This document shows positions 1,898 to 22,705 of a stretch of 64,000 bases of DNA, one piece after another. Every line of letters starts with the position of its first letter. Position 1 is the first letter of the stretch. Position numbers and translations under genes: made by a program. The DNA comes from Burkholderiales bacterium (GTDB taxonomy: Bacteria; Pseudomonadota; Gammaproteobacteria; Burkholderiales; SG8-39), in contig JBFFEY010000009.1 of assembly GCA_041558415.1 (NCBI GenBank), forward strand, positions 2,648-66,647, read 5' to 3'. The notes beneath the pieces are model-generated. The model was not told the DNA's origin and made no database searches. It worked only from the letters and a program-made list of their open reading frames with translations.

Positions 1898-1990
1898 TCT
1901 TGCCTCGCGTGACAGCCGGTTTCCGGCGGAATCGCGGATTTCCGGGAAAACCGTGGATTGTATCAATTTTCCAGCGAGTTACCAGAGCCG

Positions 1991-9091: not shown

Positions 9092-9180
9092 GCGCGCGAT
9101 TCTACTCGCGCCACCGCGACGGCTCGTTAGCTCGCTAGAATACGGCGCTTGCGGAACGATTCCAGAGAAGAGAGGAGACC

Positions 9181-9855
9181 ATGGGCAAGTTCATCGAGCT
9201 CGTCGCCAGCGACGGGCACCCGCTGTCCGCCTACCGCGCCGACCCCGCCGGCAAACCGCGTGGCGCCGTCGTCGTGATCCAGGAGATCTTCGGCGTCAAC
9301 AGCCACATTCGCGCGGTGGCGGACGGCTATGCCGCGGACGGCTACCTCGCCATCGCGCCGGCGATGTACGACCGGCTGGATGAAAATTTCGAAGTCGGCT
9401 ACACGCCGGACGACGTCGCCAAGGGCCGCGCGCTGAAGGACAAGGCGCAACTCGATGCCGCGCTGCGCGACGCCGAGGCCGCGGTGAAGGAAGCGGCCAA
9501 GGCCGGCAAGGTCGGCATGGTCGGCTACTGCTGGGGCGGCTACATTACCTGGATGGCTGCGTCACGCGTGGCGGGCCTGGCCTGTGCGGCGCCGTACTAC
9601 GGCGGCGGCAGCACGACCGACGAGGCGATCGCCGAAAAGCCGAAGTGCGCGGTCCTGGCGCACTACGGCGAGAAGGACGAGCACATTCCGGTGGACGGCG
9701 TGAAGAAGCTCGCCGCCGCGCACCCGGCGGTCACCGTGCACCTTTATCCGGCGCCGCACGGCTTCAACTGCGACCAGCGCGGCTCCTATGACGCGGCGAG
9801 CGCCAAGCTCGCGCGCGAGCGCACGCTGGCGTTCTTCCGCCAGCACCTCGGCTAA
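9181..9855 (+). CDS. Dienelactone hydrolase family protein (carboxymethylenebutenolidase-like)
   Basis: 224 aa, VVVIQEIFGVNSHIR..GYCWGG..HYGEKDEHIP..APHGF. Confidence 0.85.
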   Translation: MGKFIELVASDGHPLSAYRADPAGKPRGAVVVIQEIFGVNSHIRAVADGYAADGYLAIAPAMYDRLDENFEVGYTPDDVAKGRALKDKAQLDAALRDAEAAVKEAAKAGKVGMVGYCWGGYITWMAASRVAGLACAAPYYGGGSTTDEAIAEKPKCAVLAHYGEKDEHIPVDGVKKLAAAHPAVTVHLYPAPHGFNCDQRGSYDAASAKLARERTLAFFRQHLG

Positions 9856-9859
9856 GCCC

Positions 9860-9880
9860 AGCGTACGCAACGCGTACGCT
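9860..9880. terminator. GC-rich hairpin between convergent genes (possible bidirectional terminator; no U-tract)
   Basis: agcgtacgc-aac-gcgtacgct: 9-bp perfect stem with a 3-nt loop, located between the DLH stop (9855) and the comE-like stop (9899). Confidence 0.3.
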
Positions 9881-9898
9881 GCACGCCCTGCGCGCGGG

Positions 9899-10489
9899 CT
9901 ACTGCAGGTCGGCGGCGGCGCCGAGCAAGGCGCGGCGGAAGCGCGCCTTGAGCAGGCCGCCGTCGCGCGGCGGCAGGATGATCGGCACCTTTTCGGCGCG
10001 CACCTTGACCGTCGCGAAGTTCGGCCCGGGGTGCGCATGAATCGCCGCGCGCAGCGCGTCGAGTTCGTTCGCGGCGCGTACCGTGCGTGCGTCGGCGAAG
10101 CCCGCGGCGCGCGCCATCGCGGCGAGGTCGACGCCGTGCGCGGTGTGCGTTTCCTGCATGCCGGTCTCGCCGTAGCGGCCGTTGTCGATCACGACCACCG
10201 ACAGGTTCGCCGGCCGCTGCACACCGATCGTCGCCAGCGCGCTCAACCCCATGAGCATCTCGCCGTCTCCGGTGATCACCAGCACACGCCGCTGCGGCTG
10301 CGCGAGCGCCAGGCCGAGGCCCATCATCGCCGCCTGGCCCATCGCACCCCACAGCGGGAAGGTCAGGTCATGGTCGCCCGCCGCGGTGCAATCCCAGGCG
10401 GTGGAGCCGAGCCCCGCGACCACCAGCAGCTCGCCGCGCTCGGCGAGCAGCGCGGAAACGACGTCGCGTCGGTGCAGGGTCGCGCTCAT
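9899..10489 (-). CDS. Sulfopyruvate/phosphonopyruvate decarboxylase family, beta (TPP-binding) subunit
   Basis: 196 aa from the internal ATG (cat 10487-10489): GAMGQAAMMGLGLALAQP.RRVLVITGDGEMLMG..VVIDNGRYGETG. ATGA overlap with the alpha-subunit stop. Confidence 0.75.
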   Translation of the reverse strand: MSATLHRRDVVSALLAERGELLVVAGLGSTAWDCTAAGDHDLTFPLWGAMGQAAMMGLGLALAQPQRRVLVITGDGEMLMGLSALATIGVQRPANLSVVVIDNGRYGETGMQETHTAHGVDLAAMARAAGFADARTVRAANELDALRAAIHAHPGPNFATVKVRAEKVPIILPPRDGGLLKARFRRALLGAAADLQ

Positions 10490-11031
10490 TGCGCTGCCTG
10501 TTCCTGGAAGCTCTTGATGCCGATTACGCGCTGCGAGATGAGCACCGCGACCGCGGCATAGCCGTTGAACGCCAGGCGCAGCGCCGCATCGACCGCCGGC
10601 GCAACCGCCTTCGCCTCGAGCGCCGGCTGCACGATCACGCCCATCGCCTCGAGCACCGCGGGCGTGGCCTGTCCCATCGGGATCTGCCAGGGATTGAATT
10701 CGCCGTACTCGCCGCGCATGGTGATGATCATGGGCAGCGGAATGCGGCATTCCTTGATCGTGCCGAGCACGTTGATGACGTTGCCCACGCCGCTCGACTG
10801 CATGAGCAGCACCGCACGCGCCCCGCCGAGCCAGGCGCCGGTCGCGAGGCCGAGGCCCTCCTCCTCGGTGGCGAGCACGACGCTGCGCATCGAGGCATCG
10901 GCATGACACAGCTCGATGAGCCGCTTGTGCCCGGCATCCGGCACGTAGCTGACGATCGAGATGCCGGCCGCCTTCAGCGCGCCGTGCACCTCCAGCGGCC
11001 AGTCGACGCCGGCGGCCTGCGGCGCGTTCAT
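10486..11031 (-). CDS. Sulfopyruvate/phosphonopyruvate decarboxylase family, alpha subunit
   Basis: 181 aa, VSYVPDAGHKRLIELC..ATEEEGLGLATGAWLGG..LLMQSSGVGNVINVL. ATGA overlap with the flavoprotein stop. Confidence 0.75.
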   Translation of the reverse strand: MNAPQAAGVDWPLEVHGALKAAGISIVSYVPDAGHKRLIELCHADASMRSVVLATEEEGLGLATGAWLGGARAVLLMQSSGVGNVINVLGTIKECRIPLPMIITMRGEYGEFNPWQIPMGQATPAVLEAMGVIVQPALEAKAVAPAVDAALRLAFNGYAAVAVLISQRVIGIKSFQEQAAQ

Positions 11032-12791
11032 GCCGCGTCCCTCGCCGCGCCATGCACGGCGTCCCGCAACAGCGTCTCGCCCGGGCGCACGCGCGTGAAG
11101 GCCACCGACTTGTGCGCGATGGCGACCCCGCCATCGACCAGGCGCGCGCTGGTGTAGGCCGAGCGCTCGAGCACCCCCGCCTCGGGGAAATCGGAACGGA
11201 AATGCGCGCCGCGCGAATCCTCGCGCGCACGCGCCGCGGCAGCGATCACGCGGCTCACTTGCGTCAGGCTTTTCAGGTTCATCCAGTCGTGCCAGGAGAG
11301 ATTGAACGCGCGACCGGTGTCCGGCAGCGCGATGCCATCAAGCGCATCGTCGAGCGCCGACAGTTCGCGCTCTGCCGCGGCCAAGCCCGCGGCGTCGCGA
11401 ATGATACCGACACGATCCCACATCACGCCAGACAGTGTTTCGCGCAACACCTCGAGCGCGCCATGACGCCCTGCGCCACCGCCGAACGGCCGCTCGCAGC
11501 GCGCGATAGCAGACTCGATCGCGCTCGGATCAGGGGTGCGCAGGGTGCCTTCGCTGCGCACCCACGCCGCCATCGCATCGCCCGCCACGCCGCCGTACAC
11601 CGTCGAATTGGCCACTCCGTTTCCGCCAAGGCGGTTGGCGCCGTGCACGCCGCCGGAATCCTCGCCCGCGACGAACAGGCCGGCGAGCGCGGTCCTGCAG
11701 TCGGCAGCGAACTCGACGCCGCCCATCATGTAGTGCGCCGTCGGCACCACCTCGACCAGCCCGCCGGCCAGGTCGAAGCCGCAGTCGGCGCAGCGCTCCA
11801 CCATGCCCTTGAAGTCGCGCCGCACGCGCTCGGGGCCGAGGTGCGCCATCGAGATGTACAGACCGCCGTTCGGGGTCACGTGGCCCGCGCGCATTTCCGC
11901 GTACATGGCTCGCGAGACGATGTCGCGCGTCGCGCGCTCGAGCTTCGCGTCGTAATGCTGCATGAAGCGCTCGCGCGCACCGTTCAGCAGGGTGCCGCCG
12001 GCGCCACGCAAACCTTCCTCGAGCACCGTACCGGTCATGCGTGTGTGCGGGCCGGCCAGTAGGCCGGTCGGATGAAACTGCACCATCTCCATGTCGCGCA
12101 GCGCGAGCCCGGCACGCAGCGCCATCGCCAGCCCGTCGCAGCTCTTGTCGCCTGAGGGCGTGTGGTAGCGGTACATCGTCGGCCCGCCGCCGGTGGCGAG
12201 CAGCACCGCCTTGGCGCGCACCAGCAGATACTCGCCGCTGCGCATGTCGATCATCAGCACGCCGGCGAGCGCGTCACCCGCGCTCGCCGGGATGAGCTCG
12301 ACGGCGCGGTGCTCCTCGAGGCGGCGGATCTCGCGCGCCCAGACCTGCTCGGCGAGCCGGTTGATGATCTCGATGCCGGTGAGGTCGCCCTTGTGTACCG
12401 TGCGATCAAACGTCTGCCCGGCGAAGGCTTTCTGGTGGATCGTGCCGTCCGGATTGCGGTCGAAGAAGCAGCCGAGCTCGTTTTCCAGCTCGCGGATGCG
12501 CTCCACCGCGAGGGTCACCAGCTGCCAGGCAAGCTCCTGGTCGGGCAGCCACTTGCCTCCCTCGATGGTGTCCATGAAGTGGCGCTCGATCGAGTCGCCC
12601 GGCGCCAGCGCCACGTTGTAGCCGCCCTGCACCATGCGCGTGCAGCCGCATTTGCCAAGCAGGCCCTTGACCGCGACGGTGATCGCCAGCTCGGGCGCCG
12701 CGCGGTGCGCATGCAGCGCGGCGAATAGCCCGGCGCCGCCCGAACCGAGAATCAGGATGTCGCTGTGAATCTCGCGCAGCGCCCGTTTCAC
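11028..12791 (-). CDS. Fumarate reductase/succinate dehydrogenase-type flavoprotein subunit
   Basis: 587 aa, DILILGSGGAGL, VQFHPTG, EGLRGAGG, HYMMGGV, GANRLGGN, RGAHFRSDFPE. Confidence 0.85.
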   Translation of the reverse strand: MKRALREIHSDILILGSGGAGLFAALHAHRAAPELAITVAVKGLLGKCGCTRMVQGGYNVALAPGDSIERHFMDTIEGGKWLPDQELAWQLVTLAVERIRELENELGCFFDRNPDGTIHQKAFAGQTFDRTVHKGDLTGIEIINRLAEQVWAREIRRLEEHRAVELIPASAGDALAGVLMIDMRSGEYLLVRAKAVLLATGGGPTMYRYHTPSGDKSCDGLAMALRAGLALRDMEMVQFHPTGLLAGPHTRMTGTVLEEGLRGAGGTLLNGARERFMQHYDAKLERATRDIVSRAMYAEMRAGHVTPNGGLYISMAHLGPERVRRDFKGMVERCADCGFDLAGGLVEVVPTAHYMMGGVEFAADCRTALAGLFVAGEDSGGVHGANRLGGNGVANSTVYGGVAGDAMAAWVRSEGTLRTPDPSAIESAIARCERPFGGGAGRHGALEVLRETLSGVMWDRVGIIRDAAGLAAAERELSALDDALDGIALPDTGRAFNLSWHDWMNLKSLTQVSRVIAAAARAREDSRGAHFRSDFPEAGVLERSAYTSARLVDGGVAIAHKSVAFTRVRPGETLLRDAVHGAARDAA

Positions 12792-12826
12792 GCCTTCACG
12801 CCCCCGGTGCTGTTGCGTACGCCCGT

Positions 12827-13435
12827 CTAGCGGACGCCGAGGCTGGCGAGCGCAGCGGCACGGCGCGCCTGGGCAGCGGCGTTCACCGTGTCATAGAGGC
12901 TCGCGCCATGGCTGTCCATGGCGACGAGCAGCGGGCCGAAACCGCGCACGCGGAACTTCCACAGCGATTCCGGGTTGAGGTCGTCGAGATCGACGTCCTC
13001 GATGGCCTCGATCCAGGTCGTCTCCAGCGCCGCGGTGCCACCGATGATCGCGAGATACACGCCACCGAGGTCGCGGAACGCGGCCGACGAGGCCTCGCGC
13101 AAGCCGCCCTTGCCGATGATCATGCGCACGCCGTACTGCTCCATCAGCGGCCGGGTGAAGCGCTCCATGCGATCGCTGGTCGTCGTGCCGATGCACACCG
13201 ATGCGTAACCGCTCGGGTTGGCGGGGCTTTTCTCGACCTTGCGCACATTCGGCGCAGTGTGGATCACCGCGTGCCCATTCAGATCGAAACGCGTCCTGCG
13301 CCCGCGGTCGAACATGTGAATCTGCGTCGCGTCGCGGATGCCGTAAAGCGTTCCGTTCAGCGTCACCGTATCGTTGGCACGCAGGGCGCGGACCTGCGCC
13401 TCGCGCACCGGCATCGTGAAATCGTGGTGCGCCAT
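12827..13435 (-). CDS. Fe-S type hydro-lyase (class I fumarase/tartrate dehydratase family), beta subunit
   Basis: 202 aa, LNGTLYGIRDATQIHM..IHTAPNV..IGTTTSDRME..MIIGKGG..WKFRVRGFGPLLVAMD. Confidence 0.8.
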   Translation of the reverse strand: MAHHDFTMPVREAQVRALRANDTVTLNGTLYGIRDATQIHMFDRGRRTRFDLNGHAVIHTAPNVRKVEKSPANPSGYASVCIGTTTSDRMERFTRPLMEQYGVRMIIGKGGLREASSAAFRDLGGVYLAIIGGTAALETTWIEAIEDVDLDDLNPESLWKFRVRGFGPLLVAMDSHGASLYDTVNAAAQARRAAALASLGVR

Positions 13436-13446
13436 CGCTGCGTGCC

Positions 13447-14019
13447 TCAGGAACCTGCGCCGAGCAGCGCGGCCTTGAGGTCGTCCTGCACCGGGTTCAG
13501 GCCCAGCCAGACGCGCAGCAGCGCGCGGTAGAAGTCCTCGCCGACGATCGGCTGCCCGGACGGCTTTCCATCGATCCGCAGCCGCAGGCCTTCGCCGTGC
13601 GCCCAGTCGATGTCGATCGCCATGCCTTCCTTGGCTTCCTGTACGTCGGCCATGATCCTCGTCAGCTGCGAAATGCGCGGCCCCAAGCGCACCATCTCCG
13701 CGTCGCTGTGGTTCTTGCGCAGACCGTCGATCAGCGCCTGCGTAAACGCCTCGGCGCTGACATCGCGCAGCATGCGGATCGCCACACGCTTCGGTCCTGG
13801 CAGCAGCAGGATCTCTTCGGCCTTGCGTTTGGATTCCGGCAGATACAGGCCGATCGCGTAGAGGTCGAGGAACAGAAGCTTGCGCAGTCCGGCGCCGTTC
13901 AGCACGAGCGTTGAATCGCCGGGTCCGTCGATTTTCTCGGCGAACTTGACGCCTTCGACTTCGGCCGCCTGCGCCAGGCTGATGATCGCAGACAGCAACA
14001 CTGCAGCCAGAACTCTCAT
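13447..14019 (-). CDS. Chalcone isomerase-like family protein with signal peptide
   Basis: MRVLAAVLLSAIISLAQA-AEVEGV, then LVLNGAGLRKLLFLDLYAIGLYLP..FYRALLRVWLG. Start ambiguous: ATG at 14019 or the upstream start at 14037. Confidence 0.65.
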   Translation of the reverse strand: MRVLAAVLLSAIISLAQAAEVEGVKFAEKIDGPGDSTLVLNGAGLRKLLFLDLYAIGLYLPESKRKAEEILLLPGPKRVAIRMLRDVSAEAFTQALIDGLRKNHSDAEMVRLGPRISQLTRIMADVQEAKEGMAIDIDWAHGEGLRLRIDGKPSGQPIVGEDFYRALLRVWLGLNPVQDDLKAALLGAGS

Positions 14020-14020
14020 C

Positions 14021-14896
14021 TCAGTACCCGTACTCAATGCCCTGCGGACCGATGGTCGCCCGTGCGCGGCGCGCCGAGTGACATTGCATGTTGACCGCCA
14101 CCGGATTCATCGTGATGTGCGTCGCCGCCGTTTCGACGTGCACCGCGAACGCGGTCGCATCGCCGCCCAGTCCCTGCGGGCCGACACCCAGCTGGTTCAC
14201 GGCCGGCGCGAGCGCCTGCTCGAGCGCCGCGCCTTCCGGGTCGCCGCAGCGCGTGCCGAGTGGCCGCGTCGCCGCGACCTTGGCGAGATGCACGCAGAGA
14301 TCCGCGGTGCCGCCCACGCCGACGCCGACGATCGTCGGCGGACAGGTCTTGCCACCGGCAGCGAGTACGCAGTCGATGACGAAGGTCTTGATCGCGTCGA
14401 CACCCTCGGCGGGAATCGCCATGCGCAACCAGGAATTGTTCTCCGAGCCGGAGCCCTTCGGCACCATCTCGATCGACAGGCGCTCGGCGTCCTCCGAGAA
14501 ATCGAAGTGGATGACGGGCACGCTGCGGCCGCAGGAGCTGTGCTCGTTCTTGCGCGTCACCGGGTGCACCACGGAAGAGCGCAGCGGATGCTCGCGCGTC
14601 GCCCGCGCACAGCCCTCGCGGATGGCCGCCTTGAGGCCGGCACCGTCCACTTCGACGCCGCGTCCGATGACCACGTTGTAGATGGGGATGCCGGTGTCCT
14701 GGCACAGCAGGTTGTCGGTCTCCTCGGCAACCTTGATGTTGGCGATCATGGTGCCGAGGATGCGCTTTGCGGTGGGGTCGCTTTCCGCGGCGTCTAGCCC
14801 GGCGAAGCCCTGCTTGATGTCCGGCGGCAGCAGCTTGACCGCGCGGATGTAGAGCTGCTTGGCAGCTTCCTCGACTTGCTTGAGATCGACCTTCAT
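14021..14896 (-). CDS. Fe-S type hydro-lyase (class I fumarase/tartrate dehydratase family), alpha subunit
   Basis: 291 aa from the internal ATG (cat 14894-14896): LCQDTGIPIY..EMVPKGSGSENNS..GGKTCPPTIVGVGVGGTAD. Confidence 0.8.
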   Translation of the reverse strand: MKVDLKQVEEAAKQLYIRAVKLLPPDIKQGFAGLDAAESDPTAKRILGTMIANIKVAEETDNLLCQDTGIPIYNVVIGRGVEVDGAGLKAAIREGCARATREHPLRSSVVHPVTRKNEHSSCGRSVPVIHFDFSEDAERLSIEMVPKGSGSENNSWLRMAIPAEGVDAIKTFVIDCVLAAGGKTCPPTIVGVGVGGTADLCVHLAKVAATRPLGTRCGDPEGAALEQALAPAVNQLGVGPQGLGGDATAFAVHVETAATHITMNPVAVNMQCHSARRARATIGPQGIEYGY

Positions 14897-14924
14897 GCGC
14901 TCGATTGTAGTCTGGCGGGGCGCG

Positions 14925-15272
14925 CTACAGGGCGAGGGCGAAGGCGAGGCCCATGGCAAGCGCGAGCGCGGCCGCGGCGGCGGCGAGGCTCTTCTGCCAG
15001 TCGCGCCAGGGCAGGAACTCGAGCGCGAGCAGCCGCAAACCGCCCGCCAGGTGCGCCGCCAGCAGCAAGACGATGCCCCACTCGGCGAACTTGACCGCCG
15101 GCAGCGCCGTCCAGGCGAGGAAACGATCGAACTGCGCCGCACCCTGCAGCGACTGGCTGAGCGCCCAGAAATGCACCGGCAGGAACAGCGCCAGCAGGAT
15201 GCCGGAGACGCGGTGCACGAGGAACGCGCCGTAGGCCGGGTGCTTGCGCGCCCGAGAATCGTTACGCCGCAC
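14925..15272 (-). CDS. Small membrane anchor subunit of the Frd/Sdh-type complex (putative)
   Basis: Hydrophobic, His-containing helices (AFLVHRVSGILLALFLPVHFWAL, FAEWGIVLLLAAHLAGGLRLL). Start set at GTG 15272 by me; start uncertain. Confidence 0.5.
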   Translation of the reverse strand: MRRNDSRARKHPAYGAFLVHRVSGILLALFLPVHFWALSQSLQGAAQFDRFLAWTALPAVKFAEWGIVLLLAAHLAGGLRLLALEFLPWRDWQKSLAAAAAALALAMGLAFALAL

Positions 15273-15609
15273 CGCCGAACACTCCCGCAACTGCGCGCAG
15301 GCCGAGCACGGCCAGCGCGATCGCGAACAGAACCAGAACCACGTCGCGCGAGGCGCCGCGCCAGCCGAGCCACTCGCCGAGCGTGGCGCGCAGCCCGATC
15401 GGCGCGTGCACCGCAGCGGCGACGACGAAGGTGGCGTAGAACACCAGGCCCGGAACGTTGCCGCGCGTGCGGCCAAGGATCTCCGCCGCCGACAGACCGC
15501 CCTGCACCGCAGCGATGATCGTCACCAGGTGCACCAGCACGCAGAACGCGAGCACGGCGGCGCTGGCGCGCTGCGCCAGCCAGAGAATCGTTTCGCCGCG
15601 CGCCTTCAC
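15262..15609 (-). CDS. Small membrane anchor subunit of the Frd/Sdh-type complex (putative)
   Basis: ILWLAQRASAAVLAFCVLVHLVTII plus two further helices. GTG start at 15609 overlaps the Fe-S subunit stop (GTGA). Confidence 0.5.
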   Translation of the reverse strand: MKARGETILWLAQRASAAVLAFCVLVHLVTIIAAVQGGLSAAEILGRTRGNVPGLVFYATFVVAAAVHAPIGLRATLGEWLGWRGASRDVVLVLFAIALAVLGLRAVAGVFGGAA

Positions 15610-16319
15610 AGCGTGCCCTTCAGCAGCGCGCGCGCCAGCCTGCGCTTGAGGCCGGCAATGCCCGCCGTCGGCGAGATCTTCTGCGGGCAGCGCTCGCTGC
15701 AACCCATCTGGCTGTGGCAGGCGTGGCAGCCCGCGTCGCCGCCGACCGCACGCAGCCGCTCCGACTGCGCCGTGTCGCGTGCGTCACAGGCGAGCGTCCA
15801 GGCACGGTTCAGCGCCGCGGGGCCCAGATAGTCCGGGTTCCAGGCCACCAGGTCGCAGGAGGCGTAGCACACGCCGCAGCCGATACATTCGATGCCCGCG
15901 TCGGCCTGCCGCCGTACGGCGTCCTCGGGCGAGATGCGCGCGAAGTCCTCGTGGCGCGTCCGGCTGCCGCTGAACTGGCCGCGCGCGCGCGCCCACTTGT
16001 CGAAGAACGGCGCCATGTCGGTGACCAGGTCGCGAATCACCGGCAGGTGGCCGAGCGGCGCGACCTCAAGCGCACCGTCGTCGGCCACCGCGTCGACATG
16101 CGTGCGGCAGGTCCAGCGTGCCACGCCGTTCACCGTCATCGCGCAGGAGCCGCACATGCCGACGCGGCAGGCGAAGCGGTAGGCGAGCGACGCGTCGATA
16201 TGGCGCTGGATGTGGGTGATGACGTCGAGCACCGTCTGGCTCGCGTGGCGCGGCACCTCGAAGCTCTGGAAGGCGCCTTGCTCGGCGCCGCGCCAGACAC
16301 TCACGCGCAGGGTCTGCAT
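15606..16319 (-). CDS. Fumarate reductase/succinate dehydrogenase-type iron-sulfur subunit
   Basis: 237 aa from the internal ATG (cat 16317-16319) of a 676-aa read-through ORF. Cluster motifs CRVGMCGSCAM, CIGCGVCYASC, CHACHSQMGCSERCP. GGAG RBS follows the upstream TGA. Confidence 0.85.
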   Translation of the reverse strand: MQTLRVSVWRGAEQGAFQSFEVPRHASQTVLDVITHIQRHIDASLAYRFACRVGMCGSCAMTVNGVARWTCRTHVDAVADDGALEVAPLGHLPVIRDLVTDMAPFFDKWARARGQFSGSRTRHEDFARISPEDAVRRQADAGIECIGCGVCYASCDLVAWNPDYLGPAALNRAWTLACDARDTAQSERLRAVGGDAGCHACHSQMGCSERCPQKISPTAGIAGLKRRLARALLKGTL

Positions 16320-16333
16320 GTCTCGCCGTCTCC

Positions 16334-18007
16334 TCAATGCGCACCACCCGGCGGCGTGCCGGTGCGCGACAGCCTCGGCGCCGCGAGCGGCGCAATTTCG
16401 ACGTTTACGCAGGCTGGCTTGCCTGCGGCCAGCGCACGCTCGAGCGCCGCGCCGACCTCCGCCGCGCGGGTGACATGCTCGCCATGCCCGCCGAGCGCCG
16501 CCACCGCCAGATCGTAACGCGTCGGCTGCATCTCGCAGCCGACGGCGCGCGCCGGGCCGTAGCTGCGCAGCTGGATGAGATGTTCCGCGTTCCAGCGCGC
16601 GTCGTTGCCGAGGACGGCGACGAACGGCGCGCCGCAGCGCACCGCGGTTTCGAATTCGGCGAGATAGAAGCCGGCCGAGCCGTCGCCGAGGGTGGCGATC
16701 ACGGGCGCACCGGGATGCGCCAGGCTGGCGGCAATGGCGTACGGAATCGAGCCGCCGATGCCGCCGGCCGGGCCGTTGGTGATGCGCGTGGCGGCGCTGG
16801 CGCAGGCCTGCGCCCACTGCCCGAATTCGCCGCCATCGCAGACCAGCACCGCGTCCGGCCGCGCGGCGAGCGCCTGCTGCACGGCGCGTGCGACCGCCAG
16901 CGGATGCACGGCGCCCTCCGCCGACGGCGCCTGCGCCCACTCGGCCGGTCGCGCAGCCAGCGCCGCGTCGACCTGCTGCTTCCACCCCGCCTGCGCGGCG
17001 ACGGGCGAAAAGCCGCGCCGCGCAGCCGAGATCAATGCCTCGGCCGCGGAGAATGCATCGGCTTGCACCGCGTTCAGCAGGCGCGCGGCGTCGCCGATGG
17101 CGACCGCACTGCGGCGCAGCGCCTCGGCCTCGGGATCGACGTGAATGAAGCGGCAGTGCGCGCTGAACGCAGGCGGCTGGCCGAAACGCAGCGTGAAATC
17201 GAGCTTGCGCCCCAGCAACAGCACGAGGTCCGCCTCGGCCAGAAGATCGGGCAGCGCACCGAGCGAAGGATCGGCGATGCCACGCGGGCTTTCGCTGTGC
17301 ACGACGGGAATCCCGGTCGCGGCGCAGAGCGCTTCGCGCAGCCGCTGGCCGCGTCCCGCCGCCATCGCCGGCGCGGCGACGATGAGCGGACGCGCCGCGC
17401 GCGCCAGCGCATCGAGAATCGCGCGCGCGGCTTCGTCGGCAAGCGGTTGCCCAAGCGCGTCGAACGCTGTCGCATGGGGCGGGGCGACCGCGGCGGCATC
17501 GAGCGTCGCCTCGAGCAGGTCGTACGGCAGGCTGACGTGCACCGGTCCAGGCCGCCCGGATTTGGCGATGCGGAAGGCGCGTGCGACGTCCTCGCCCAGC
17601 GTCGCGGCCTGTTCGGCCGTCCACGCCGCCTTGCACAGCGGTGCCGCCACCTCGGCCTGGCGCAGCTCCTGGAACGCATCACGGCCCAGCTGGCCGAGCG
17701 GCGCATGGCCGGAGAGCAGCACCAGCGGTGCTTCGGCGCCAAGCGCGTTGTACAGCGCACCGACGCCGTTGGCATGGCCGGGTCCGGCAGTGAGCAGCGC
17801 CACGCCCGGTTCGCCCGTCAAGCGTCCCCAGGCGTCGGCCATGTGCACCGCGGCGCCCTCGTGACGCGTGTGCACAATGCCGAGCCGCGCGTCGACGGCG
17901 GCGTCGTACAGCACCATCACCTGGTTGCCCGAGAGCGAGAACAGCCGCTCGGCGCCGCCGCGCGCCAGGGCGCGCGCGACGAGATCCGCGCCGCGCAGCG
18001 TCGCCAT
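16334..18007 (-). CDS. Thiamine-diphosphate enzyme of the acetolactate synthase / oxalyl-CoA decarboxylase / Xsc superfamily
   Basis: 557 aa, HEGAAVHMADAWGRLTG.PGVALLTAGPGHANG, GRPGPVHVSLPYD, GDGSAGFYLAEFETAVR. Substrate not assignable. Confidence 0.85.
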   Translation of the reverse strand: MATLRGADLVARALARGGAERLFSLSGNQVMVLYDAAVDARLGIVHTRHEGAAVHMADAWGRLTGEPGVALLTAGPGHANGVGALYNALGAEAPLVLLSGHAPLGQLGRDAFQELRQAEVAAPLCKAAWTAEQAATLGEDVARAFRIAKSGRPGPVHVSLPYDLLEATLDAAAVAPPHATAFDALGQPLADEAARAILDALARAARPLIVAAPAMAAGRGQRLREALCAATGIPVVHSESPRGIADPSLGALPDLLAEADLVLLLGRKLDFTLRFGQPPAFSAHCRFIHVDPEAEALRRSAVAIGDAARLLNAVQADAFSAAEALISAARRGFSPVAAQAGWKQQVDAALAARPAEWAQAPSAEGAVHPLAVARAVQQALAARPDAVLVCDGGEFGQWAQACASAATRITNGPAGGIGGSIPYAIAASLAHPGAPVIATLGDGSAGFYLAEFETAVRCGAPFVAVLGNDARWNAEHLIQLRSYGPARAVGCEMQPTRYDLAVAALGGHGEHVTRAAEVGAALERALAAGKPACVNVEIAPLAAPRLSRTGTPPGGAH

Positions 18008-18025
18008 GTCTCCGCGCCGCTCGGC

Positions 18026-19201
18026 TTACGCCGACTCGTACAGCCGCGTCAGCACGAACTCGCGGTGGCCGAGCGCCTCGGCCGCGGTGAGCCGGCCGTT
18101 GGCCGTGCGCAGCATGCACGCGAGCAGCGCATCACCGGCCTGGTCGGGCGAGAGCTCCTTTCTCAGCAGCCCCGAGACGTCGACGTCGATGTGCTCGCCC
18201 ATGGTGCGCACCGTGCGCGGGTTGGCGCACAGCTTGATCACCGGCAGGATCGGGTTGCCGATCACGTTGCCCTGCCCGGTCGGAAAGAAGTGCACCGCAA
18301 AGCCCGCCGCCGCGCACAGCGTCACCATCTCGGCGGCCGCCGAAGAGGAATCCATGAACCACAGCCCCGGCCCGGTGGGCTCCTCGGCCTTGTCGAGCAC
18401 GCCGTCGACCGCGCACTTGCGCCCGATCTTCTGGATGTTGCCGAGCGCCTTTTCCTCGATGGTGGTGAGCCCGCCGGCGATGTTGCCCTTGGTCGGCTGC
18501 GATTCCGACAGATCGCTCGTCTTGTGCCGGTCGATCACCGCCTGGTAGCGGTCGAACATGAACTGGAACTTCTTGCGCACCGCGTCGTTCTTGCAGCGCG
18601 CCGCCACCAGGTGCTCGCCGCCGGTGAGCTCGGTGGTCTCGCCGAAACACAGCGTCACGCCCTCGCCGTAGAGCTTGTCGAAGGCGTTGCCCACCGTCGG
18701 GTTGGCGCCGCAGCCCGAGGTGGTGTCCGATTCGCCGCACTTGGTCGAGACCCACAGCTCCTTCAACGGGCGCTCTTCGCGGCGCAGCTCGCCCGCGGCC
18801 TGCACGAATGCCTTCGCCGCGCGCGAGGCGCGCTGGATCGTGTCCAGATCACCGTGCAGCTCGATGCCGAAGCCCGCCACCGGCTTGCCCGTCTTGGCGA
18901 TGCCCTCGACCACCTTCTGCGTCCAGCCCTCCTCGATGCCGATCACCACCACCGCCGCCACGTTCGGGTTGCAGCCCGTGCCGATCAGCGTGCGAAAGTG
19001 CAGATCGAGATCGGCACCGAACTGCAGCCGGCCGTAGGGATGCGGCAGCGCCAGCGTGCCCTTGATGTTGTTCGCCACCGCCTCGGCGGCCGCGTTCGAG
19101 ATGTCGTCGACCGGCAGGATGATGACGTGGTTGCGCACGCCCACCCGGCCGTTCTCGCGCCGGTAGCCCCAGAAACTGGCCTTCGAAAGATCCATTGCCA
19201 T
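18026..19201 (-). CDS. UxaA-family dehydratase large subunit (altronate dehydratase / sulfolactate sulfo-lyase SuyB-like)
   Basis: 391 aa, [54 protein letters not shown]. Confidence 0.8.
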
Positions 19202-19213
19202 GCCCCCCCCGGC

Positions 19214-19495
19214 CTACCAGCGCTTGGTCTTGACGTTGTGCACGTGCAGGTGCTCGCCCTGCTTGATCGGCGCCACCACCTTGCCAATGTCCACGCCGTA
19301 CTTGATCACCGTGTCGCCCGGCTCGTAGTCCCTGAGCGCCACCTTGTGGCCGATCGGCACGTCGCTCCTGGCCTGCACCTCGAGGTCCTTGTCGTCTTCC
19401 ATGATCCAGCCGACCAGCTTCTGGCCCGCCTTCACCCCCTCGACGACCACCACCCCCACGCCGTCGCCCTCCTCGTGCACCACAAAATGGATCAT
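19214..19495 (-). CDS. SAF-domain small subunit of split UxaA-family dehydratase (SuyA-like)
   Basis: 93 aa from the internal ATG (cat 19493-19495): DVPIGHKVALRDYEPGDTVIKYGVDIGKVVAPIKQGEHLHVHNV. Confidence 0.7.
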   Translation of the reverse strand: MIHFVVHEEGDGVGVVVVEGVKAGQKLVGWIMEDDKDLEVQARSDVPIGHKVALRDYEPGDTVIKYGVDIGKVVAPIKQGEHLHVHNVKTKRW

Positions 19496-19741
19496 CGCTC
19501 GCCCCGGCCTGCTTCCCGCTGTTCGAAGGGGCGCTATTATCCACCGCGGCGAGCCCGCGCGCGGCATTCGCCGCGCACGGTTTCGCTGCGTCGACCGTTA
19601 AGGCCTGCATGCCGACGCCACGCGAGTTCCTGCTGGCACTGGCTGCCGCCTCGCCGCTCGGCCTGCGCGCGACGCGCGCGCGTTTCGTCGTCGAGGACGG
19701 CACGCCGGGGGCGCGAAAGGCCTGAGCCGCAGCGCCCGCCC

Positions 19742-20851
19742 TCAGCCCTGCGCGCGCAGCCTGGCGAGCGCCGAGCCGTCGTCGATCGCCGTGCGCGCCA
19801 CCTCGGCCGCCTCGCGCAGCGAGCGGGATTTGCCGAGGTGCCACAACACGAGCGCCGCGCCGTACACCAGCGCGTCGCGCGTCGGCCCCCTCTCCCCGGC
19901 GAGCGCATCCAGTCCCGCCTGCGCGGCGACCTTCGCCACCGCATTCGCATCGATTTTCGCCTGCGCGCCTTCGCCCTCGCCGGCGAGCGCCGGCGGAATC
20001 TGCGGTGCCCGCAGCGTCTGCTCGATGCCGAGCTCCGCCGGCCGGAACTCCACCGCGAACGGCTCGCCGCGGCCGACGCTGCGGAACACCTTGCCCCCCT
20101 GCGCCAGCGCGGGCACGACGCCGCCTTCCACCCCGCGCACCAGCAGCGCCGTGTCGTAACCCGCTTCCCGCGCAAGCAGCGCATAGACGCGCGGATAGGG
20201 CTTGTGCACGTAGCCGGTCACCAGGTGCGTCTTCCTGCGCCCCACCAGCGGCTGCGCCAGCACCTCGACGGTCGTGATCACCGGCCGCTTGACGATCAGC
20301 GTGCGCAGATCGGTAAGCGCGTTCAGCTTCGGGCAGAACACCGACTGGTCGAGATACGCCCAGCCCGCGCGCGGATCGCCCAGTCGCGCCGCCGCCTCCT
20401 CCGGCGTGGCGTCGACCTTGAGGCCCGCGGCGTGCAGCACCTGACGGTGCGTCACGCCGTATTTCGGCCCCATGCGCTCGACGCCGTGCGAGAACGCCGG
20501 CACGCCGCAGGCGGCGAGCAGCGCCGGCGTGAACGGCGCAGCGGGCAGGTTGCGGTTCATGCCGTCGTAGGGATCGGCGAGGTCGACGACCTCGTCCACC
20601 GGGGCGGTGACGCGCCGCGTCGCCTCGCGCACCGCGTCGAGCACGCCGCAGTTCTCCTCGTCGGTCTCGCGCTTCATGCGCAGCGCGATGAGGAAGATGC
20701 CGGCCTGCACCGGATCCACCGCGCCGTCGAGCACCGCGCGCATGCCGGCGCAGGCCTCCTCGCGCGAGATGTCCTTGGAGAGTTCCGGCCCGGTGGCGAT
20801 GCGCCCGATGATCGAGCGCATCAGCGCCCGCGCCTGCACGGCCTCGCTCAC
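19742..20851 (-). CDS. Anthranilate phosphoribosyltransferase-like (glycosyl transferase family 3, TrpD2/YbiB-like)
   Basis: 369 aa, GTG start. QAGIFLIALRMKRET..DPYDG..HGVERMGPKYGVT..VTGYVHKPY..VRGVEGG. Confidence 0.75.
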   Translation of the reverse strand: MSEAVQARALMRSIIGRIATGPELSKDISREEACAGMRAVLDGAVDPVQAGIFLIALRMKRETDEENCGVLDAVREATRRVTAPVDEVVDLADPYDGMNRNLPAAPFTPALLAACGVPAFSHGVERMGPKYGVTHRQVLHAAGLKVDATPEEAAARLGDPRAGWAYLDQSVFCPKLNALTDLRTLIVKRPVITTVEVLAQPLVGRRKTHLVTGYVHKPYPRVYALLAREAGYDTALLVRGVEGGVVPALAQGGKVFRSVGRGEPFAVEFRPAELGIEQTLRAPQIPPALAGEGEGAQAKIDANAVAKVAAQAGLDALAGERGPTRDALVYGAALVLWHLGKSRSLREAAEVARTAIDDGSALARLRAQG

Positions 20852-21177
20852 GCCTGCGTCCCCTCCGGGCAGGCGACGAGCAACCGCCCGCCCTCGACGC
20901 GCACGGCATAGCTGCGCAGGTTCTCCTCTGCCGGCTCCTCGAGCGCCGCGCCGGTGCGCAGGTCGAAGCGGCTGCCGTGCAGGGGGCAGCGCACCAGCGC
21001 GCCCTTCAGCACGCCGGAGGACAGCGAGGCGTCCTCGTGCGTGCAGCGGTCGTCGGTCGCGTAGTAGCGGCCCTCGACGTTGGCGATGAGCACGCGCCGT
21101 GCGCCGATCTCGACACAGCGCATGGTTCCGGCGCGCAGCGCATCCGCCGGCCCGGCATCGAAGAATTTTTCCGCCAT
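20848..21177 (-). CDS. Rieske [2Fe-2S] ferredoxin
   Basis: 109 aa from ATG (cat 21175-21177). CTHEDASL..CPLHGSRF Rieske motifs. Stop overlaps the trpD2-like GTG start (GTGA). Confidence 0.8.
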   Translation of the reverse strand: MAEKFFDAGPADALRAGTMRCVEIGARRVLIANVEGRYYATDDRCTHEDASLSSGVLKGALVRCPLHGSRFDLRTGAALEEPAEENLRSYAVRVEGGRLLVACPEGTQA

Positions 21178-21277
21178 TCCCTGCTCGCTACGTGGCTGCG
21201 CCCGTCTGCGACGCCTCAAACCGCTTCGGCCGCTCGCAGGGGCGCAGGCCTATGATAGATTGAAACGCGGAAGGCGC

Positions 21278-22705
21278 ATGCCTCGGCTCCTGACACTGTC
21301 CCGCGCGGCGCGCCTGGTCGGCGTGCGGCGCGGCGCGCTGCAAAGCAAAATCCGGAGCGGCGAACTGGCCGCCTTCGAGGGCAGGGTGTCGGCCGAGGAC
21401 CTGCTGCGCGTCTACCCGCAGGCCGGGCTGGAGGACAATGCCGGGCTGGAGCGGTTCGACGCGATCAAGGACGCGGCCTTCACGCGACGCATGCGCGAGC
21501 GGCTGCTGCCTAGCGCACAGGTGCTCGTGGCGCGCCTCGCCGAGCTGAGCCGTGAGCGCGCCGAGGCGCAGGCCGCGCTCGAGCACTACCGCGCGATCGT
21601 GCTCGAACTGCAGGAAAAACTCGGCGCGACGCGCGACGCCGGAGCGGTGCTCGCCTGGCTCAGGCAGCGCCTCGAGCCCGCAGGGCAGGGCGAGCCGCCG
21701 CTGCTCGCGCAGGAGAGCTTGTTGAGAGTGGTCACGGCGCACGTACAGGTCCGGCCGAGCGGCCGGGAGTTCTTCGTCGACGGCAACGACAGCCTGCTGG
21801 AGGCCGCGCTGCGCGCCGGCCTGTCGCTCGACTACGGCTGCAGCATCGGCAGCTGCGGCAAATGCAAGGCGCGCGTCGTCTCCGGTCAGGTGCACCGCAC
21901 GCAGCACTCCGACTACGCCCTCAGCGCGGCGGAGAAGAACGCGAATGTCGTGCTCATGTGCTGCCACACAGCGCTCAGCGACCTTGTCATCGAGGCGCGC
22001 GAGGCGCACGGCGCAGAAGACATGCCGCTGCAAAGCATCGATGCGCGCGTCAAGTCGGTCGGCGCGATCGCTGACGACATGCGGCTGCTGCATCTGCAGA
22101 CGCCGCGCAGCAACCGGCTGCGCTTCCTCGCCGGACAGTCGGTGAGGCTTACGCTGCCCGACGGCAGCAGCGCCTCTCACCCGGTCGCGAGCTGCCCCTG
22201 CGACGAGCGCAACCTGCAGTTCCACATTCCGCATGACGCGGCCGACGGCTTCGCGGCGCAGGTGTTCGGCGGGCTGAAGCACGTCGAGGCGGTGCACATC
22301 GACGGTCCTCGCGGGACCTTCGTGCTCGACGAGGAATCGCCGCGACCGCTGGTGTTCGTCGCACGCGACACCGGCTTTGCGCCGGCCAAGAGTCTCATCG
22401 AGCACGCAATGGCGCTCGATAGCGCCGAGTCGCTCGTGTTGTACTGGATCGCGTCGGCCGGCCGCCACCACTATCTCGACAACCTGTGCCGCGCCTGGAG
22501 CGACGCGCTGGACGACTTCCGCTACGTGCCGCTCGTCGGCGAGGACGCGGGCGCGCTCGCGCGCATCGCACAGGACCACCCCAGGCTCGACGGGCACGAC
22601 GTCTATGTCTCGGGGCCGCCGGACTGGGCGCAGGCGTTCGGCACGCAGCTCGTCGAGCGCGGACTGCCACGCGCCCAGCTCTTCGTCGAAGCGCGCGACG
22701 GCTGA
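21278..22705 (+). CDS. Fusion protein: N-terminal HTH-like/coiled-coil region + plant-type [2Fe-2S] ferredoxin + FNR-like reductase module
   Basis: 475 aa from ATG 21278 (GGAAGG RBS). LTLSRAARLVGVRRGALQSKIRSGEL; CSIGSCGKC...MCC; FNR-like C-terminal half with divergent ARDTGFAP in place of GGTGxAP. Confidence 0.75.
   Translation: MPRLLTLSRAARLVGVRRGALQSKIRSGELAAFEGRVSAEDLLRVYPQAGLEDNAGLERFDAIKDAAFTRRMRERLLPSAQVLVARLAELSRERAEAQAALEHYRAIVLELQEKLGATRDAGAVLAWLRQRLEPAGQGEPPLLAQESLLRVVTAHVQVRPSGREFFVDGNDSLLEAALRAGLSLDYGCSIGSCGKCKARVVSGQVHRTQHSDYALSAAEKNANVVLMCCHTALSDLVIEAREAHGAEDMPLQSIDARVKSVGAIADDMRLLHLQTPRSNRLRFLAGQSVRLTLPDGSSASHPVASCPCDERNLQFHIPHDAADGFAAQVFGGLKHVEAVHIDGPRGTFVLDEESPRPLVFVARDTGFAPAKSLIEHAMALDSAESLVLYWIASAGRHHYLDNLCRAWSDALDDFRYVPLVGEDAGALARIAQDHPRLDGHDVYVSGPPDWAQAFGTQLVERGLPRAQLFVEARDG

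Follow-up and report, generated by a model that had tools for sequence, protein, structure and literature searches.

The window analysed here is a stretch of 64,000 nucleotides (nt) from contig JBFFEY010000009.1 of a Burkholderiales bacterium. On its minus strand, from position 21177 to 9899, runs a closely packed string of 14 genes, in which the subunits of a complex II-like membrane complex, related to succinate dehydrogenase (Sdh) and fumarate reductase (Frd), and of a fumarase-like Fe-S hydro-lyase are interspersed with a SuyAB-like pair and with thiamine pyrophosphate (TPP)-dependent enzymes. We propose that 12 of these genes, from suyA to comE, might constitute an operon for the dissimilation of C3 organosulfonates that is centred on sulfolactate, and that 3-sulfopropionate would enter it by way of the Sdh-like complex and the hydro-lyase; to us this reading has about an even chance of being right.

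Given the G+C content of about 70% in the window, open reading frames (ORFs) were filtered by the G+C content of their codon positions and their starts were then set by inspection. Domain labels of the encoded proteins come from searches with Pfam and NCBIfam profiles. The gene order, domain labels, coordinates and overlaps that an earlier note had read from this DNA were all borne out by these procedures, although its title count of fifteen genes was a miscount. The spacers range from -11 to +35 nt; the sole large gap is that of 246 nt after the TrpD2-like gene. GTGA or ATGA overlaps are found at four junctions (Rieske/TrpD2, SdhB/SdhD, SdhA/ComD and ComD/ComE). The two membrane anchors of 115 amino acids (aa) that the note had listed are present, and their order can now be specified as SdhD-like followed by SdhC-like. 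In the direction of transcription the features of the region are:

20848-21177, minus strand: Rieske ferredoxin, 109 aa
19742-20851, minus strand: TrpD2/YbiB-like protein, 369 aa
19496-19741, minus strand: intergenic stretch of 246 nt upstream of suyA, the probable promoter region of the 12-gene operon
19214-19495, minus strand: suyA, SAF small subunit, 93 aa, SAF domain
18026-19201, minus strand: suyB, UxaA/GD_AH large subunit, 391 aa, GD_AH_second and GD_AH_C domains
16334-18007, minus strand: single-chain TPP enzyme, 557 aa, three TPP domains
15606-16319, minus strand: SdhB-like Fe-S subunit, 237 aa, Fer2_3 and Fer4 domains
15262-15609, minus strand: SdhD-like membrane anchor, 115 aa, Sdh_cyt domain, best match TIGR02968
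14925-15272, minus strand: SdhC-like cytochrome b556 anchor, 115 aa, Sdh_cyt domain
14021-14896, minus strand: alpha subunit of a class I [4Fe-4S] hydro-lyase, 291 aa, Fumerase domain
13447-14019, minus strand: secreted chalcone-isomerase-fold protein, 190 aa, Chalcone_3 domain
12827-13435, minus strand: beta subunit of the class I hydro-lyase, 202 aa, Fumerase_C domain
11028-12791, minus strand: SdhA/FrdA-type flavoprotein, 587 aa, FAD_binding_2 and Succ_DH_flav_C domains
10486-11031, minus strand: comD-like, sulfopyruvate decarboxylase alpha subunit, 181 aa, top match TIGR03845
9899-10489, minus strand: comE-like, sulfopyruvate decarboxylase beta subunit, 196 aa, TPP_enzyme_C domain, TIGR03846
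8090-9091, minus strand: Ldh_2-family dehydrogenase, ComC-like, Ldh_2 domain, beyond the coordinates of the earlier note

The operon is headed by adjacent genes for proteins of 93 and 391 aa, separated by a 12-nt spacer. This is the heteromeric arrangement of SuyAB, which has been described as the only heteromeric functional enzyme of its superfamily (PMC6336799). In tblastn searches against annotated plasmids, the large subunit proved to be 80.8% identical over its full length to a plasmid gene of Cupriavidus pinatubonensis and 65.6% identical to its counterpart in Paracoccus versutus, whereas other UxaA-family genes reached only about 40%. For the small subunit, the identity is 63% to its 93-aa counterpart in C. 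pinatubonensis and 52% to that in P. versutus. The C. pinatubonensis match lies in the plasmid string LacI-hpsN-hpsO-MFS-Zn-dehydrogenase (hpsP)-suyA (93 aa)-suyB (391 aa), which is the hpsRNOUPsuyAB cluster of the literature on 2,3-dihydroxypropane-1-sulfonate (DHPS) (PMC11382572). The P. versutus suyAB genes have as neighbours a GntR regulator, an ATP-binding cassette (ABC) system, a sulfate-exporter-family gene and a pyruvate carboxylase. On the combined grounds of the identity to the C. pinatubonensis genes, the drop to about 40% elsewhere and the heteromeric architecture, the pair is by homology SuyAB, the (R)-sulfolactate sulfo-lyase, and the ComD/ComE-like pair is consequently best read in sulfonate terms. 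In one relative, a 3.8-Mb long-read assembly (locus L005, 4356-5528), the suyB site holds a 128-aa GD_AH_C fragment and a 77-aa ORF, and the TPP gene is absent; either the assembly contains frameshift errors at this site or suyB is decaying there.

A scan of one genome per species yielded at least 596 candidate stretches, the best 80 of which are 69-86% identical and include the cultured Paraburkholderia, Bordetella petrii, B. sputigena, Imbroritus primus, Massilia niastensis, Parapusillimonas granuli and Curvibacter delicatus. The flavoprotein itself is identical in four metagenome assemblies and has very many close relatives among metagenome-assembled genomes of Burkholderiales. The window proteins were then compared with the best loci by tblastn and the leftover ORFs clustered; counts refer to the 55 loci of at least 15 kb, and co-occurrence means a distance of up to 10 kb from the module. 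The order SdhB-SdhD-SdhC-[0-3 kb]-FumA-FumB-SdhA recurs in about 51 of the 55, with SdhB present in 52 and FumA/FumB in 51. That the core order returns in so many independent loci of other species goes far beyond what chance would give. The hydro-lyase genes between the flavoprotein and its Fe-S and anchor partners, which the earlier note had found unusual, are thus part of the ancestral order of the whole family and not a local rearrangement, since the same order rules across the related loci.

The genes around this core point to sulfonates. SuyB accompanies it in 33 loci, SuyA in 34 and an Ldh_2 homologue in 39; the last often lies directly after sdhA or within the suyAB operon. The TPP enzyme occurs in 21 loci and often adjoins TauE, the secreted chalcone-isomerase-like protein in 9, and ComDE in 7, all of the closest clade. 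Orthologous clusters thus keep both the SuyAB and the TPP genes, a point on which the earlier note had wished its single pathway to be checked, and the genes from SAF to ComE behave as the one conserved functional unit that it had suspected, being co-localised across dozens of species and on several types of replicon. Genes that recur beside the module and are absent from the window include TctC binding proteins (33 loci), GntR (22) and LysR (15) regulators, TauE/SafE sulfite exporters (19), SsuA-family ABC transporters (15), D-2-hydroxyacid dehydrogenases (12), TAXI-type tripartite ATP-independent periplasmic (TRAP) transporters (9), sulfatase-family proteins (8) and the phosphosulfolactate synthase ComA (4); TauD, DctA, pyruvate carboxylase and a sulfite dehydrogenase of the SorA type also belong to this set. 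Of the 55 loci, 48 have one or more sulfonate markers, such as SuyAB, TauE or an SsuA-type ABC transporter, at a distance of no more than 10 kb, and one has DHPS genes as well. In four relatives a ComA-type synthase, a second TauE and/or a sulfatase-family gene sit inside the Sdh/Fum operon, between sdhC and tctC/fumA, and six others have only the sulfatase-family gene, which is of the alkaline-phosphatase superfamily. The presence of ComA, which makes phosphosulfolactate from phosphoenolpyruvate and sulfite, in an apparently catabolic cluster is puzzling.

The Sdh-like complex has, by its Pfam and NCBIfam matches, the four-subunit composition of complex II: a three-cluster Fe-S protein (194 bits to TIGR00384, dhsB, cutoff 88), SdhC- and SdhD-type anchors, and a flavoprotein. 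The SdhC-like anchor scores 61.3 bits to TIGR02970 (cutoff 52.3) and has a histidine in the motif AAHLAGGLR; its start codon is uncertain, a GTG start giving an overlap of 11 nt. The SdhD-like anchor has a histidine within the motif AAVHAPIG, which we take to match the heme-ligand motif of Escherichia coli SdhD. The flavoprotein finds its best NCBIfam match in the thiol:fumarate reductase TfrA, at 484 bits and under the cutoff of 718. Its residues were numbered on E. coli FrdA by alignment to PDB 1kf6, and their states were checked in 75 members of the family, drawn from both the form seen in the window and a sister form described below. In all 75, the position of FrdA His44 (SdhA His45), which links the flavin adenine dinucleotide (FAD), is a cysteine, in the window within the motif GKCGCT; the active-site Thr244 position is a glutamate and the Glu49 position a glutamine, again without exception. 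The equivalents of His232, Glu245, Arg287, His355 and Arg390 are kept, so that five of the six substrate-site positions of complex II are intact, and an insertion of 6 aa (..TRMTG), common to the family, lies before the hinge and beside the Thr244 position. Neither the histidine for covalent FAD nor the complete substrate site of complex II is found. Judged by these residues, the flavoprotein is not a standard succinate/fumarate enzyme, and the FAD of the complex would be non-histidyl, that is, non-covalent or possibly cysteinyl.

In alignments of the hydro-lyase to the M. jannaschii fumarate hydratase (7xky_A and 7xky_B) and to that of L. major, all three cysteines that bind the [4Fe-4S] cluster are kept, as are the catalytic residues (Asp, His, Thr, Arg and Lys). 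In the alpha subunit the cluster ligands lie in the motifs CQD, CPP and QC..RRA, and its score to the NCBIfam fumarate-hydratase model NF004885 is 301.3 bits, over the cutoff of 276. The beta subunit just passes TIGR00723 (145.9 bits, cutoff 145.15) and falls under every equivalog cutoff (fumarase 126.5 against 269; TtdB 141.2 against 264); it keeps the RD, TT..RM and GKG motifs, with GP changed to GT and a 6-aa insertion relative to 7xky_B. The aspartate of its motif GTTTSDRM was considered as a marker of specificity and rejected, because the residue varies at this position (D 25, A 17, S 3, E 1). The canonical binding and catalytic residues retained in the flavoprotein and the hydro-lyase suggest that both would still bind a dianion with the shape of fumarate or succinate.

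Between the two hydro-lyase genes lies that for the Chalcone_3 protein, which begins with a signal-like segment, MRVLAAVLLSAIISLAQA before AE. Its AlphaFold2 model has a predicted local distance difference test score of 89.6, and Foldseek matches it to the plant chalcone isomerase (CHI), CHI-like (CHIL) and fatty-acid-binding (FAP) proteins with template-modelling scores of 0.65-0.71; the model thus predicts a genuine fold of the CHI/FAP type. The protein carries the invariant NGAGLR motif of its family and is probably a periplasmic binder of some ligand. In the related loci that have it, homologues of about 60% identity again lie between fumA and fumB, so that the position which the earlier note had found unusual is that of a stable insertion in one subclade.

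Three further enzymes bear on the fate of sulfolactate. The ComDE-like pair has the split of sulfopyruvate decarboxylase into alpha (PYR) and beta (PP) TPP subunits. The top match of ComD is TIGR03845, with 127.1 bits against a cutoff of 147.95 and phosphonopyruvate decarboxylase scoring lower at 73 bits; that of ComE is TIGR03846, with 129.5 bits against 221.5. The best NCBIfam match of the Ldh_2 protein is the 'L-sulfolactate dehydrogenase' NF040650 (184.6 bits, cutoff 500). Sulfopyruvate decarboxylase and sulfolactate dehydrogenase are accordingly proposed functions, which draw on best-hit homology and context, and the Ldh_2 protein is a candidate (R)-sulfolactate dehydrogenase that belongs functionally with the cluster. 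The 557-aa single-chain TPP enzyme has PRK05858 and 2-hydroxyacyl-CoA lyase (HACL) as its best NCBIfam matches, all under cutoff, and HACL, HACS and Oxc as its best PDB matches; it can be placed in the HACL/Oxc/benzaldehyde-lyase (BAL) clade. Its assignment as the sulfoacetaldehyde acetyltransferase Xsc was rejected on its score to TIGR03457 (151.6 against a cutoff of 676.4), and the window holds no Xsc-family enzyme, the only TPP enzyme there besides ComDE being this one of the HACL/Oxc/BAL type. Twenty loci have the TPP enzyme only, six have ComDE only, and one, the window's own assembly, has both. From this near-exclusive alternation we suspect that the TPP enzyme acts on sulfopyruvate or sulfoacetaldehyde, possibly with release of sulfite.

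Cultured carriers place the module in explicit sulfonate surroundings. In Curvibacter delicatus the module and TauE abut a LacI-ABC-HpsN-SDR-ADH-SuyA string. Plasmid pMRAD01 of Methylobacterium radiotolerans JCM 2831 carries the string ABC-type substrate-binding protein, SdhB, SdhD, SdhC, FumA, FumB, SdhA-like and TPP, adjoined by TauE and by SuyA-SuyB-DctA-2HADH-Ldh-GntR, that is, the architecture of the window with transport and export genes added. On pTAV3 of Paracoccus versutus the module, in the order B-D-C-A-Fum'-Fum', lies within an island of about 40 kb together with TauE, LysR, Ldh, a hydroxyacid dehydrogenase, TctCBA, hpsPON, slc-like genes, suyAB, a sulfate-exporter-family gene and pyruvate carboxylase. 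The plasmid location in these cultured relatives suggests that the module is an accessory copy of Sdh/Fum.

The pTAV3 module exemplifies a sister form with the order SdhB-D-C-A-Fum'alpha-Fum'beta, the flavoprotein of which is about 65-70% identical to that of the window, while its hydro-lyase is divergent (35% and 28% identity; beta motif TATASFRF in place of TTTS.RM). This form also occurs in Pseudomonas sp. MPC6, P. banfieldiae NT-26, M. nodulans, Marivita, Hoeflea and six further loci, and is frequent among marine Roseobacteraceae, Hoeflea and Anderseniella. It usually has no SuyAB in its vicinity, and the module is joined instead to genes for handling sulfite: 1) in Marivita and Hoeflea a molybdenum (Mo) sulfite oxidase follows straight after the hydro-lyase; 2) in M. 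nodulans there are a Mo oxidoreductase with cytochrome c, TauE, a sulfate exporter and DctA; 3) in MPC6 a sulfite oxidase, TauE and a homologue of CoA-acylating (methyl)malonate-semialdehyde dehydrogenase; and 4) in NT-26 TauE, a TRAP system, an NAD(P)-binding-domain protein and a succinate-semialdehyde dehydrogenase homologue. Uptake systems of the tripartite tricarboxylate transporter (TTT), DctA or TRAP type are among the neighbours, and NIPSNAP and YeiH-type genes often follow. The NAD(P)-binding and GabD-like neighbours in NT-26 could make 3-sulfopropionate from 3-hydroxypropanesulfonate or homotaurine, and the semialdehyde dehydrogenase homologues of NT-26 and MPC6 would agree better with a skeleton of three carbons than with one of four. 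The sister-form hydro-lyase may release sulfite by hydrating the sulfonate-bearing carbon. These plasmid examples, including sister forms joined to sulfite handling, argue that the Sdh/Fum pair is itself a sulfonate-processing unit, carried on plasmids in several bacterial phyla. On a plasmid of Sulfitobacter sp. THAF37, some 10 kb separate the Sdh/Fum module from a gene (locus L094, 25391-26563) that bears the annotation 3-sulfinopropanoyl-CoA desulfinase, and genes for sulfinate and sulfonate C3 acids may be clustered together there.

In the route that we propose, the module would be a sulfo-copy of the segment of the tricarboxylic acid (TCA) cycle from succinate through fumarate to malate, with sulfoacrylate as the sulfonate analogue of fumarate: 1) the Sdh-like complex would oxidise 3-sulfopropionate to sulfoacrylate and pass the electrons to quinone; 2) the two-subunit Fe-S hydro-lyase would hydrate sulfoacrylate at C2 to (R)-sulfolactate; and 3) SuyAB, by strong homology, would cleave (R)-sulfolactate to pyruvate and sulfite, the sulfite being eliminated in the Fe2+-dependent reaction of this enzyme. 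A side branch would lead from sulfolactate via Ldh_2 to sulfopyruvate and via ComDE to sulfoacetaldehyde, and homotaurine or 3-hydroxypropanesulfonate upstream would be funnelled through 3-sulfopropionate into the known sulfolactate pathways. To our knowledge, 3-sulfopropionate is the only known sulfonate that is shaped like succinate and gives sulfolactate after dehydrogenation and hydration. By our own application of the Cahn-Ingold-Prelog priorities, the spatial analogue of L-malate is (R)-sulfolactate; a hydro-lyase product of this configuration would fit the enantiomer used by SuyAB. Still tentatively, and at somewhat less than even chances, we suggest that a complex II paralogue with non-histidyl FAD and a class I fumarase paralogue form such a 'sulfo-TCA segment' from 3-sulfopropionate to sulfolactate, and that the sister form might release sulfite directly.

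The literature offers several points of contact with this proposal. Sulfoacrylate is a proven analogue of fumarate for enzymes of the aspartase/fumarase superfamily (PMC9457059), homotaurine is degraded by Paracoccus pantotrophus (PMC12421959), and it is converted to 3-sulfopropionate by enzymes of the GabT/GabD type (PMC5320631). According to a paper of 2024, the breakdown of 3-sulfopropionate by bacteria 'has not previously been reported'; the one source that it cites for a route through sulfoacrylate and sulfolactate, in Roseovarius nubinhibens, is a thesis (PMC11489063). A review of 2026 describes the mechanism in Bilophila as unclear. Our literature search found no gene assignment for 3-sulfopropionate degradation, sulfoacrylate hydratase or sulfosuccinate desulfonation. 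R. nubinhibens was not among the best 120 matches of a homologue search seeded with a Sulfitobacter protein, a result that is uninformative on whether it carries the module.

Several observations weigh against the 3-sulfopropionate route. The hydro-lyase alpha subunit passes the cutoff for fumarate hydratase, no sulfonate-specific change of residue was seen in it or in the flavoprotein, all the canonical dicarboxylate-binding residues being kept in both, and a sulfonate would be oddly paired with a glutamate at the Thr244 position. Mutants of E. coli FrdA in His44 reportedly keep fumarate reduction and largely lose succinate oxidation. Oxidation of a succinate-like C-C bond may be hard without covalent FAD, and the missing histidine calls for caution on the direction of the reaction, which is uncertain. 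The tblastn search of the window placed neither a transporter nor TauE in the operon; seven of the 55 loci have no sulfonate marker within 10 kb; and the route does not account for the TPP enzyme or for the ComA and sulfatase-family genes of some relatives. Growth of the carriers on 3-sulfopropionate is a prediction.

Other substrates and directions were also considered. An Sdh/Fum module working on a sulfonated C4 acid, from sulfosuccinate through sulfofumarate to 3-sulfomalate, would account for the retention of both carboxylate-binding sites in flavoprotein and hydro-lyase, as expected for a substituted dicarboxylate. The tricarboxylate-type TctC proteins, the commonest transporter component, and the frequent position of Ldh_2 directly after sdhA would also suit it. 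Onward from 3-sulfomalate, however, either oxidation and decarboxylation (Ldh_2, loss of CO2) to sulfopyruvate or sulfolactate, or loss of sulfite to give oxaloacetate, would be needed, and the extra decarboxylation steps have no dedicated gene. The close identity of SuyB (81%) to the sulfolactate enzyme of a DHPS cluster leads one to expect a C3 intermediate, as do the semialdehyde dehydrogenases beside the NT-26 and MPC6 modules. The literature search gave no natural source of sulfosuccinate and no genes for its degradation, whereas the module is present in at least 80 species. We regard a C4 substrate as unlikely. It is likewise unlikely, in our estimate, that the Sdh-like complex is a membrane-bound sulfolactate:quinone oxidoreductase, which would convert (R)-sulfolactate to (enol-)sulfopyruvate for decarboxylation by ComDE or the TPP enzyme. 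Non-covalent FAD suffices to oxidise a 2-hydroxy acid, the invariant change of Thr244 to glutamate could provide a base or hydrogen-bond partner for the 2-hydroxyl, and sdhA is either coupled to comD by an ATGA overlap or directly before the TPP gene. Succinate dehydrogenase is moreover able to oxidise malate to enol-oxaloacetate, and class I fumarases tautomerise oxaloacetate. In this reading the hydro-lyase would be an enol-keto tautomerase or would have a different substrate. Yet this leaves a universally linked hydro-lyase without a primary role, most loci already have Ldh_2 and 2-hydroxyacid dehydrogenases for the same oxidation, and the separate uptake systems of the module and of the suyAB operon suggest two substrates.

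The absence of the FAD-linking histidine and the best match to TfrA could also be taken to indicate the reverse direction, by analogy to fumarate respiration: a sulfoacrylate (or fumarate) reductase would serve as an electron sink, sulfolactate passing through sulfoacrylate to 3-sulfopropionate for export by TauE, with ComA supplying sulfolactate in the few relatives that have it. TauE-family proteins have indeed been proposed as exporters of 3-sulfopropionate (PMC11489063). Nevertheless, the SdhC/SdhD-type anchors and the glutamine at the Glu49 position, as in succinate oxidases, speak against a reductase, as do the uptake binding proteins and LysR regulators of the module itself and the sulfite oxidases joined to the sister form, which are typical of a catabolic entry. 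The hosts, moreover, are Burkholderiales, Alphaproteobacteria and other groups, and ubiquinol would be a poor donor for such chemistry, the first two being mostly ubiquinone-only aerobes; we consider this direction quite improbable. Very improbable, finally, is a true second succinate dehydrogenase and fumarase for C4 acids (in a reductive TCA branch, a 2-oxoglutarate decarboxylase bypass or tartrate use) that merely lies beside sulfonate genes, even though the dicarboxylate-binding residues are kept and the alpha subunit reaches the fumarate-hydratase score. The invariant loss of His44 and Thr244 is expected from mutant data to cripple succinate/fumarate turnover, the plasmid-borne state in cultured species suggests an accessory copy, the TPP enzyme is, by its NCBIfam and PDB matches, of the HACL/Oxc/BAL type, and in one phylum after another the module is systematically linked to SuyAB, TauE, sulfite oxidase and sulfonate transporters. 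Of the two alternatives that the earlier note could not separate, the sulfonate-type C3/C4 acid pathway is on the right track. The reductive TCA branch with its bypass is not supported, as the UxaA pair is SuyAB, the flavoprotein lacks two hallmarks of succinate/fumarate enzymes, and the neighbourhoods abound in sulfite exporters, sulfonate transporters, sulfite dehydrogenases and DHPS genes.

Set beside characterised systems, the cluster combines familiar and novel parts. With the SuyAB pathways of C. pinatubonensis (hpsRNOUPsuyAB) and Paracoccus pantotrophus (suyAB) it shares the 93-aa SAF and 391-aa UxaA subunits and, in its relatives, GntR, the Ldh_2 and 2HADH sulfolactate dehydrogenases, TTT/ABC uptake, a TauE/sulfate exporter and pyruvate carboxylase. 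It differs in that suyAB here heads an operon with an Sdh-like complex, an Fe-S hydro-lyase, two TPP enzymes and a CHI-fold protein, in which tblastn detected no hpsNOP, transporter or exporter genes. Like E. coli SdhCDAB and FrdABCD, the complex has a flavoprotein, a three-cluster Fe-S protein and two small heme-type anchors. Unlike them, it has the order B-D-C-(hydro-lyase)-A, a cysteine where the histidine for 8-alpha-N3-histidyl-FAD would be, a glutamate for Thr244, a 6-aa insertion beside the hinge, and an accessory, often plasmid-borne context linked to sulfonates. The hydro-lyase has the alpha and beta subunits, cluster ligands and catalytic positions of the M. jannaschii fumarate hydratase (PDB 7XKY) and the L-tartrate dehydratase TtdAB. 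In contrast to these, its beta subunit reads GTTTS.RM for GPTTS.RM, has the insertion and scores under both equivalog cutoffs, and its genes lie inside an sdh-like operon, split in one clade by the gene for a secreted protein. The Ldh_2 dehydrogenase and split TPP decarboxylase recall the ComC/ComDE steps of coenzyme M synthesis and the bifurcated sulfolactate pathway of R. nubinhibens, in which SuyAB and ComDE routes coexist, although all three window scores are under the equivalog cutoffs and the window has no Xsc-family enzyme. As in the tricarballylate dehydrogenase TcuAB of Salmonella, a flavoprotein of the FAD_binding_2 family would desaturate the succinate-like moiety of an acid outside the TCA cycle and pass electrons via an Fe-S/membrane partner to quinone. 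The FAD of TcuA is non-covalent. Its partner is TcuB, as opposed to SdhB/C/D in the window, and TcuAB has no linked hydro-lyase or sulfonate context. XcbC and XcbD of bacterial coenzyme M biosynthesis provide a precedent for fumarate-type active sites that handle sulfoacrylate (PMC9457059), but they belong to the class II aspartase/fumarase superfamily, work in the biosynthetic direction and involve no redox step.

The flanks of the operon are less conserved. The Rieske and TrpD2-like genes, which the earlier note had counted into the string, accompany the cluster in only one of the 55 loci each, that of this lineage, and form a separate upstream unit. Besides their GTGA overlap, a divergent gene for a 475-aa BenC/MmoC-like ferredoxin reductase (21278-22705, plus strand) lies 100 nt off; it bears an N-terminal extension of about 150 aa, and no oxygenase subunit is nearby. 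This trio stands beside the sulfonate operon only in this lineage. The 246-nt gap is the probable promoter region of the operon, although the evidence is weak, as a scan of 7900-21500 for consensus promoters and terminators gave nothing above shuffled sequences. Some 40 nt upstream of the suyA start codon there is a -10-like GATAAT, and relatives carry elements of the TAGAAT/TAGACT type at the corresponding place; a search of the gap for a GntR remnant found none. At the other end, a dienelactone-hydrolase (DLH)/YghX-like gene on the opposite strand (9181-9855, plus) parts comE from the Ldh_2 gene. It does so throughout the closest clade (nine relatives) and was not counted as part of the operon, since it is conserved only there and lies on the other strand. 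A TAGAAT element (within 9092-9110) lies about 10 nt upstream of the Ldh_2 ATG, and the end of the Ldh_2 gene shares an ATGA (8090-8093) with the start of a xerC-like recombinase gene, so that this catabolic gene apparently has a transcript in common with housekeeping genes. A tblastn search of the window with all the cluster-associated families found no further sulfonate genes. The first part of the window (1-1990), with an AT skew of -0.38 and a lowered G+C content, holds the 5' part of a minus-strand gene downstream of dnaG, presumably rpoD with its acidic region, and looks ordinary.

The cluster is thus plausibly composed of a SuyAB/ComC/ComDE sulfolactate toolkit of known type and of neofunctionalised paralogues of complex II and Fe-S fumarase that would supply the missing entry for 3-sulfopropionate. 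DHPS, sulfolactate, homotaurine, 3-sulfopropionate and other C3 sulfonates count among the major currencies of the sulfur cycle, and the module is widespread in soil Burkholderiales and marine Roseobacteraceae and common in soil and marine metagenomes. If our reading is correct, these would be the first genes assigned to the aerobic mineralisation of 3-sulfopropionate, and with it of homotaurine and 3-hydroxypropanesulfonate, and since the carriers include cultured, tractable strains, the cluster offers testable candidates for this gap. Automated annotation labels the genes 'succinate dehydrogenase', 'fumarate hydratase', 'L-aspartate oxidase' and 'UxaA family hydrolase', and could thereby inflate the apparent content of TCA-cycle genes in metabolic reconstructions from genomes. 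The system would also represent a clear case of neofunctionalisation of complex II and an Fe-S fumarase, with a new TPP enzyme and the secreted CHI-fold protein as further parts.

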